DNA of 46,580 bases. Origin: Escherichia coli (lineage in GTDB: Bacteria > Pseudomonadota > Gammaproteobacteria > Enterobacterales > Enterobacteriaceae). Below, piece by piece: positions 15,242 through 15,282 of the stretch. Both the position numbers and the translations under genes were made by a program. The notes beneath the pieces were generated by a model. That model did not search any database and had not been told where the DNA came from. It saw only the letters and a program-made list of their open reading frames with translations. Where the stretch lies: assembly GCF_003334255.1 (NCBI RefSeq), contig NZ_QOWU01000043.1; one strand, given 5' to 3'. Each line of letters begins with the position of its first letter. Within the stretch, counting starts at the first letter, position 1.

Positions 15242-15282
15242 CTGTAAATATCCTGGCATTGGTAATACCAGGATATTTACAG
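15242..15282. repeat. 15-bp perfect inverted repeat CTGTAAATATCCTGG-N11-CCAGGATATTTACAG between convergent ykgH and ykgG
   Basis: Direct read; no adjacent U-run, so not a canonical intrinsic terminator. Confidence 0.6.

Follow-up and report, generated by a model that had tools for sequence, protein, structure and literature searches.

A long perfect inverted repeat between the convergent ykgH and ykgG genes of Escherichia coli and its possible role on read-through RNA

Related systems

REP elements follow a common consensus, have a high GC content and are present in hundreds of copies. A further comparison is offered by RNase III substrates such as T7 R1.1, hairpins whose stem is interrupted by an internal loop or a bulge. 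The stem-loops of Rho-dependent transcripts that are familiar to us are shorter than the 19-30 bp of the structure described here. As stem-loops at processed 3' ends they form a known class (Dar & Sorek 2018, PMC6061677; Adams 2021, PMC7815308). Bidirectional intrinsic terminators, a class attributed to Ju et al. 2019, serve two convergent units with one symmetric hairpin.

We analysed a 46,580-nt stretch of Escherichia coli DNA (contig NZ_QOWU01000043.1 of assembly GCF_003334255.1), hereafter the window, and studied one inverted repeat in it, hereafter the dyad. The dyad and its flanking genes are:

15242-15282, no strand assigned: dyad, 15-nt perfect arms and an 11-nt spacer (sequence reading and repeat finder)
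14478-15146, + strand: ykgH coding sequence, 222 aa (RefSeq annotation), an orphan gene restricted to Escherichia
15389-16084, - strand: ykgG (lutC-like), last gene of ykgEFG and convergent with ykgH (RefSeq annotation)

The dyad resembles each of the described systems in part. Like the stem-loops of Rho-dependent transcripts it is stable and U-less and has Rho termination downstream on both strands, but it has no listed processed end at its base, measures 19-30 bp and is AT-rich. It is to this class that one would usually assign a U-less hairpin located between convergent genes. It shares with the bidirectional terminators a single symmetric hairpin for two convergent units; its flanks, however, are reversed: on the + strand a U-run precedes the hairpin and an A/G-rich run follows it, on the - strand this order is mirrored, and no 3' ends map to it. 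Like REP elements and BIMEs it is an extragenic palindrome between convergent genes, whereas its sequence is AT-rich and strictly single-copy. The small RNA (sRNA) candidate reported from the ykgH 3' UTR (PMC5145812, PMC8175672) adjoins the dyad in the same spacer and on the same strand, and its terminator U-tract takes part in the lower helix of the extended structure; that candidate was defined by RIL-seq chimeras, however, and the mature RNA, which ends at 15239, excludes the dyad. In common with RNase III substrates the dyad would form a long coaxial duplex with an asymmetric bulge, but the part of one dsRNA dataset that we examined contains nothing at this locus.

We tentatively read the dyad as an RNA stem-loop that is carried by read-through transcripts and acts there as a barrier to exonucleases, and we give this reading a probability of roughly one in three. 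A neutral palindrome is nearly as likely.

Sequence, geometry and predicted fold

The left arm CTGTAAATATCCTGG (15242-15256) and the right arm CCAGGATATTTACAG (15268-15282) match at 15/15 positions and enclose the 11-nt spacer CATTGGTAATA, as found by reading the sequence and with a repeat finder. An earlier note on this DNA, made from the sequence alone, had described a 15-bp perfect inverted repeat at 15242-15282 between convergent ykgH and ykgG. The arms bear this out, and the RefSeq annotation agrees on the flanks, with ykgH on the + and ykgG on the - strand. The repeat finder also showed that the dyad exceeds the size given there: it can be extended to 19-nt arms with one C.A mismatch (15257/15267) and a 3-nt loop, GGT. 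RNA folding extended the structure further into the flanks:

15261-15263: loop of the dyad in the reading with 19-nt arms, 3 nt
15226-15293, no strand assigned: extended stem-loop, in which a lower helix is stacked on the dyad (RNA folds)

The extended stem-loop spans ~68 nt with ~30 pairs. Folding adds 11 flanking pairs (CUUUU/AAGAG, UG/CA and AUGC/GCAU), which join 15234-15238 to 15283-15287, 15231-15232 to 15288-15289 and 15226-15229 to 15290-15293. Between this lower helix and the dyad lies a bulge of 3 nt, UCA, at 15239-15241. The predicted stability was -21.1 kcal/mol on the + strand and -25.8 kcal/mol on the - strand for the 41-mer, and -29.1 (+) and -33.3 (-) kcal/mol for a 73-mer. The folds of the dyad differed from those of shuffled sequences with z = -5.9 to -9.3, and within ~400 nt the dyad was the most stable local structure on both strands. 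The RNA folding that the earlier note had proposed as a check thus predicted a stable stem-loop on either strand.

Among perfect inverted repeats with a loop of 3-20 nt the dyad is the longest in the window. When the window was simulated 200 times with a first-order Markov model, no arms of 13 nt or more arose (0/200), and by our own estimate about 8e-4 repeats with arms of at least 15 nt are expected per window. The dyad is far beyond chance.

Transcript ends and termination around the dyad

The following features lie immediately upstream of the dyad:

15217-15239, + strand: ykgH intrinsic-terminator-like hairpin, then UCUUUUU (folds; columns 83-93 of our allele alignment A2 are invariant)
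15239, + strand: mapped RNA 3' end, K-12 324603 on the minus strand (Term-seq, Adams et al. 2021, PMC7815308)
15147-15239, + strand: ykgH 3' UTR RNA, an Hfq-associated sRNA candidate (RIL-seq); its 5' end is set at the first base after the stop codon by convention only

The published Term-seq data list a strong 'orphan' 3' end at K-12 324603(-) in two entries with scores of 43492 and 126276 (Adams 2021, PMC7815308, Supplementary file 1). The sequence printed around it reads GGAATGGATGCCTGTCTTTTT up to the end and CACTGTAAAT beyond it (Adams 2021, PMC7815308) and maps to window 15189-15249, which places the end at 15239. This is the final U of UCUUUUU, and the dyad begins 3 nt further on. Because of this mapped end the dyad is no part of the mature ykgH RNA, and only read-through transcripts carry it. 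The suggestion in the earlier note that the dyad is a 3' UTR element therefore has to be amended: an element of the mature ykgH RNA it is not, an element of read-through transcripts it may be. For the 3'-end mapping named there as a check there is a published Term-seq end 3 nt upstream of the dyad and none at its base. We also discarded the dyad as a part of the sRNA candidate, which ends at 15239 whereas the dyad starts at 15242.

The ykgH 3' UTR was listed as an Hfq-associated sRNA candidate with a target motif in RIL-seq data, according to the legend of Fig. 4D of Melamed 2016 (PMC5145812). Two northern probes against it failed, while RNA-seq reads accumulate there (Bar 2021, PMC8175672). 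We mapped these probes to 15191-15220 and 15206-15229, just left of the dyad.

In K-12 the terminator hairpin, CAGG-N8-CCUG, is weak with -4 kcal/mol predicted by RNA folding. A G/T polymorphism at 15228 separates this 4-bp stem from the 6-bp stem of the B2-type and most divergent alleles, where G15228U gives CAGGAA-UGGA-UUCCUG with -6 kcal/mol. In the extended stem-loop the U-tract of the terminator also forms the left side of the lower helix. A metagenomic ykgH homologue, L013, which is 54% identical, keeps GUUUUCAGGAAGGGAAUCCUGCUUUUUU after the gene, followed by unrelated sequence without a dyad; its terminator motif, CAGGAAGGGAAUCCUG followed by CUUUUUU, lies at L013 1190-1215. As this homologue keeps the terminator and has no dyad, the terminator is part of the ykgH unit and does not need the dyad to work.

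The dyad itself is not a terminator. The earlier note had stated that no U-run follows the dyad on either strand, and the tails AAGAGCAGCA (+) and UGAAAAAGAC (-) agree with this; a U5 run lies directly upstream of the dyad on the + strand and is owned by a different hairpin. Neither strand sees a U-tract after the dyad because the flanks are reversed, and the flanks only lengthen the helix. Scans with promoter and terminator consensus sequences returned nothing at the dyad. In the interval K-12 324540-324639 the Term-seq lists hold, on both strands, only the end at 324603(-) and hence none at the base of the dyad (Adams 2021, PMC7815308). These lists cover three conditions in which ykgEFG and read-through RNA are low, so they are a weak test for ends at the dyad base. 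With a U-tract missing on either strand and no Term-seq end at the base, the view of the earlier note that this is not a standard intrinsic terminator holds. As an intrinsic terminator we rejected the dyad on the same grounds: its stem is stable (-21 to -33 kcal/mol, AT-rich and unusually long) and there is neither a U-tract nor a 3' end. As a bidirectional terminator it was rejected because the order is reversed, with the U-run on the 5' and the A/G-run on the 3' side, and no ends are mapped on either strand.

Another U-less palindrome in the window, at 29986-30020, does show a Term-seq end 2 nt past its base in the same dataset. Such ends at the base of a hairpin are therefore detectable by Term-seq. 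A U-less hairpin at a Rho region was found at the dyad, while the processed end at the 3' base of the stem that would accompany it is missing from the Term-seq lists.

Rho termination regions have been called with windows of 800 nt (Adams 2021, PMC7815308). One such region is 324578(-), corresponding to window 15264(+) (Adams 2021, PMC7815308, Supplementary file 2), with 160 reads upstream and 16 downstream in untreated cells compared to 572 and 199 with BCM. A second one, 324913(+), corresponds to window 14929(-), antisense to ykgH, with a score of 6.7 and p = 2e-23 (both Adams 2021, PMC7815308). As these Rho regions lie beyond the dyad on both strands, transcripts on both strands cross the dyad and are ended by Rho. 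About a tenth of the ykgH-strand RNA reads through. RNA from the ykgEFG strand crosses the spacer and runs ~300 nt further into antisense ykgH before Rho ends transcription. Taken together, the Term-seq and BCM data indicate that most ykgH-strand RNA stops just before the dyad.

These data are consistent with the following course of events. The dyad would be the core of a long stem-loop (19 pairs, ~30 with the flanks) past the ends of both convergent transcription units. As the published Term-seq data show, most ykgH-strand RNA ends 3 nt before it at a terminator of hairpin and U-tract. The read-through minority of the ykgH strand and the ykgEFG-strand RNA carry the stem-loop and are ended later by Rho, as the BCM data show at their resolution of 800 nt. 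After Rho termination the stem-loop may then act as a passive barrier to 3'-to-5' exonucleases, and in read-through ykgH RNA the hairpin would bury the U-tract. Such a role has been described for stem-loops that lack a U-tract and close Rho-dependent transcripts.

The same structure could instead be a processing or decay site for RNase III. The ~30-bp bulged duplex on read-through RNA would be cut, read-through and antisense RNA would be destroyed, and the end at 15239 would perhaps be a product of the cut. The predicted duplex of 19 + 11 bp with its asymmetric 3-nt bulge would fit the general requirements for a substrate and reaches, by prediction only, the ~20 bp or more of dsRNA expected of one. 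Moreover the mapped end is the first nucleotide of the bulge, the K-12 terminator hairpin is weak (-4 kcal/mol) and cleavage would account for the absence of ends at the hairpin base. However, L013 has the same terminator and U-tract without the dyad and most lineages have the 6-bp stem; for both reasons intrinsic termination suffices to explain the 15239 end. A list of p19-captured RNase III products also shows nothing at the locus in the part that we examined. We thus regard RNase III processing as unlikely. The narrower idea that the hairpin helps to form the 3' end of the Hfq-bound ykgH 3' UTR RNA, either through RNase III at the UCA bulge or through a protein at the dyad centre that halts RNA polymerase at the weak terminator, seems very unlikely to us; by either path an sRNA 3' end in a convergent spacer would arise in an unusual manner, with the help of a structure or a roadblock.

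Copy number and distribution

In NC_000913.3 the dyad occupies 324560-324600, the K-12 coordinate being 339842 minus the window coordinate. The MG1655 annotation of the 242-bp ykgH-ykgG spacer contains no feature, the dyad included. The spacer was found in 5144/5426 complete E. coli genomes, and the 81 nt around the dyad were found at an identity of at least 90% in 5140 of them. The dyad locus occurs once per genome in ~95% of the complete genomes and is single-copy in 5142; two matches were returned per genome because the palindrome pairs up with its own copy on either strand. Essentially every genome with the spacer has the dyad, and it is kept at a spacer identity of 85%. The earlier note had named absence or degeneration of the dyad in close relatives as grounds for dismissing it; as the dyad is not degenerate in relatives, those grounds fall away.

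The search for other copies of the arms that was proposed in the earlier note found none beyond the single locus in 5142 genomes and in the window, where no second copy occurs at up to 3 mismatches. We found no phage matches to the dyad, and its plasmid matches were only F-prime or mislabelled chromosomal DNA. An Rfam scan with permissive E-values gave only meaningless matches, such as a miRNA model at E = 4.7 on the palindrome. A dispersed repeat of the REP/BIME, ERIC or MITE type was therefore rejected: the locus occurs once per genome and is not repeated in the window, phage or mobile relatives were not found and no Rfam match has any weight.

A recombination site, which the earlier note had also proposed, or the remnant of a mobile element (a terminal inverted repeat, a MITE or an integrase/Xer-type core) would fit three observations. 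The dyad is located where the homology of the ykgH module stops in L013. The neighbourhood upstream of ykgH is variable, with either betA or the hyxB autotransporter. In strain JNEC-KY203 (L003) an IS1-associated deletion that takes ykgH and the dyad ends at ~window 15290, 8 nt from the dyad. Against these stand the single copy in 5142 genomes, the missing phage matches with plasmid matches only to F-prime or mislabelled DNA, the lack of a recombinase in the neighbourhood and a ykgH-ykgG junction that does not change among the loci and strains examined. Thousands of genomes show no junction at which one side of the dyad is precisely replaced or inverted. By eye we also take the dyad to bear no resemblance to dif or attC. 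Found wanting in copies, relatives and enzyme, this proposal is highly improbable.

ykgH was lost twice independently, in JNEC-KY203 and in strain TCM3e1 (L008). The deletion in the latter takes most of ykgH and keeps the 3' UTR, the terminator and the dyad, with two changes in basal pairs of the dyad.

Conservation beyond E. coli was approached via protein clusters, which show YkgH to be restricted to Escherichia; a scan of genome contigs with YkgH gave two short contaminant contigs only. The most divergent syntenic loci found, L020 and L021, have spacers that are 85% identical to the window. ykgG orthologues in other genera (protein 80-87% identical) have other downstream neighbours and no similarity to the spacer. 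A metagenome scan with the flank pattern CCTGTCTTTTT-N38-48-AAGAGCA was too loose: 7/120 matches were real and none of them was a new divergent allele. Two Logan contigs, L015 and L016, showed many G-to-A differences, much as chemical conversion of the reads or damage to them would produce. The ends of both contigs fall within the palindrome and suggest that the assembly broke at the inverted repeat.

Allele variation and the neutral alternative

Alignment A2 holds 11 distinct alleles, a number at which covariation statistics are underpowered. The loop varies (GGT, ACT, AGT, ATT) and the arms are nearly constant. The K-12 allele has the C.A mismatch, which is G.U on the - strand, while many strains have a perfect 19-bp stem; in one allele group it is a T-to-C change that makes the 19-bp stem perfect. 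In B2-type alleles the pair G15256.U15268 forms on the + strand only. The lineage of L020 and L021 carries the compensatory pair T15254A + A15270T and has lost the terminal pair, and in one ykgH-deleted strain two basal pairs are broken. Relative to the common perfect allele the K-12 type differs by three clustered substitutions, ACTAATG to GGTAATA, in 15260-15270. The result is a shifted mini-palindrome, TGGTA-A-TACCA, that the other classes of allele do not have.

Across the 11 alleles 96% of the pair cells hold standard pairs compared to 36-49% in slid controls, and the cells of the lower helix pair in 93.5% of cases. Between 17 and 19 pairs persist over ~15% spacer divergence; were the observed number of substitutions placed at random, at least 18/19 pairs would survive with a chance of 0.03-0.15. 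Covariation is limited to one pair in a single lineage, and 49/500 shuffles do as well. Variable columns make up 6/38 of the arms and 43/201 of the rest of the spacer (p = 0.5), i.e. the arms evolve no more slowly than their surroundings. As the arms are as variable as the spacer, only one pair covaries and the chance value is 0.03-0.15, the evidence for selection on the pairing is suggestive at best. The + strand fold is the stronger one (B2-type -30.7 vs -27.2, L021 -27.0 vs -19.3 kcal/mol) except in K-12, whose allele favours the - strand. The pattern of G.U pairs, which fall on the + strand in B2-type and L021 alleles, suggests that an RNA-level constraint, if there is any, would act mainly on the ykgH-sense strand. 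Judging from the sequences, template switching that corrects palindromes could give the same pairing pattern.

This leads to the possibility that the dyad is neutral, an accident or the scar of an old rearrangement, whose symmetry is kept by intra-strand template switching (quasipalindrome correction) and which is tolerated since it lies beyond the functional end of the RNA. We consider this almost as likely as the exonuclease barrier. The arm variation equals that of the rest of the spacer, and neither a transcript end nor an annotation nor an Rfam family falls on the dyad. The symmetric double change of L020 and L021, the T-to-C change that perfects the stem and the mini-palindrome of K-12 would all be products of template switching. 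In addition the ykgH module of the distant homologue stops at the terminator without a dyad, and the ykgG orthologues of other genera are without the spacer entirely. Difficult to square with neutrality, however, are the 17-19 pairs kept over ~15% divergence at the above chance of 0.03-0.15 and the fact that palindromes are prone to deletion, yet almost none of the ~5140 genomes has lost the dyad with the flanks kept.

For the reading as an exonuclease barrier on read-through RNA counts the position of the dyad just past a mapped 3' end and between convergent genes. The stability of the fold, the Rho regions, the absence of a U-tract, the retained pairing and the persistence across genomes count for it as well. 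Against it count the missing Term-seq end at the dyad base, the arms that are no better conserved than the rest of the spacer, the covariation in a single lineage, the mixed strand signal and the broken basal pairs in L008.

Protein binding and coding potential

Two further features lie in or overlap the spacer:

15303-15329, + strand: sigmaE-like promoter match GGAACGG-N15-TCCTA, which points into antisense ykgG; its -35 is lost in L021
15118-15315, + strand: ORF of 65 aa that overlaps the end of ykgH and spans the dyad

The earlier note had also considered a protein-binding site. At the DNA level the dyad could be bound by a dimeric protein, be it a regulator, nucleoid protein or roadblock, or form a cruciform, which we think quite unlikely. 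Its perfect dyad symmetry would suit such a protein, but typical half-sites are far shorter than its arms of 15-19 bp. An in-vitro SELEX-chip peak of the RpoE holoenzyme at 323832 in old coordinates (~window 15234) falls in the convergent spacer; its resolution, however, is the whole 242-bp spacer, and the sigmaE-like motif at 15303-15329, 21 nt right of the dyad, could explain the peak. This coarse peak is the sole datum on binding, and we thus found no specific support for the proposal. The K-12 allele reads TGGTAATACCA at 15260-15270, which we take to resemble a GntR/FadR-type core beside the lactate-utilisation operon, and a roadblock there would put the active site of RNA polymerase near 15239. 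The other classes of allele lack the TGGT-N3-ACCA core, however, and the symmetric double substitution alters the sequence that a protein would read while it keeps the pairing. That the formation of the RNA 3' end by RNase III or a roadblock protein would make use of this GntR-like centre of the K-12 dyad beside the lactate-utilisation operon is, as with that route in general, very unlikely. By eye we take the dyad to contain the right words for LexA (CTGT-N8-ACAG) and TyrR (TGTAAA-N6-TTTACA) boxes at the wrong spacing. Convergent transcription generates positive supercoiling, which disfavours a cruciform and counts against a cruciform site.

The dyad might also be part of a small protein-coding gene, either the 65-aa ORF or an inner 29-aa ORF from 15226. 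All alleles keep the 65-aa frame open, even one from which 3 nt are deleted in frame, and PGAP predicts the hypothetical protein WP_012311773.1 in one ykgH-deleted strain. The substitutions are mostly nonsynonymous, however, the ATG at 15226 is lost (ATT) in B2-type alleles, the mapped RNA end at 15239 lies inside the ORF and K-12 has no such annotation. With nonsynonymous changes and an RNA end inside the ORF we rejected this candidate and consider it extremely improbable.

Implications

Should the hairpin act as a barrier or in processing, it would help to set the boundary between the ykgH 3' UTR RNA and the convergent lactate-utilisation operon ykgEFG. The existence of the sRNA candidate from the ykgH 3' UTR is still debated, and the failure of the northern probes could then be explained while Term-seq and RNA-seq show an abundant end. 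The locus is also a clean natural case of a long U-less hairpin directly behind a weak terminator and useful for studying how read-through between convergent genes is handled. A neutral dyad would be a tidy example of a palindrome whose symmetry is maintained by mutation alone. In both cases the stakes are modest.

Other features of the window

The palindrome at 29986-30020 has 14-bp perfect arms (ATTAATGTTGGTGT, loop 7) and no U-run on the - strand; the published Term-seq end next to it, K-12 312325+, corresponds to window 29984 (-), 2 nt past the base. It resembles a processed end that is protected by a hairpin. Between the ykgH region and this palindrome the offset to MG1655 shifts by ~2.5 kb. 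The strain is therefore K-12-like at the ykgH spacer and not collinear with MG1655 throughout.

Further long perfect inverted repeats are located at 23586-23621 (14-nt arms), 22258-22289 (13) and 38659-38691 (13). The last of these, ATAAAAATGGCGC...GCGCCATTTTTAT, looks like a bidirectional intrinsic terminator. The window also contains an intact ORF of 1418 aa at 23697-27953 (-).
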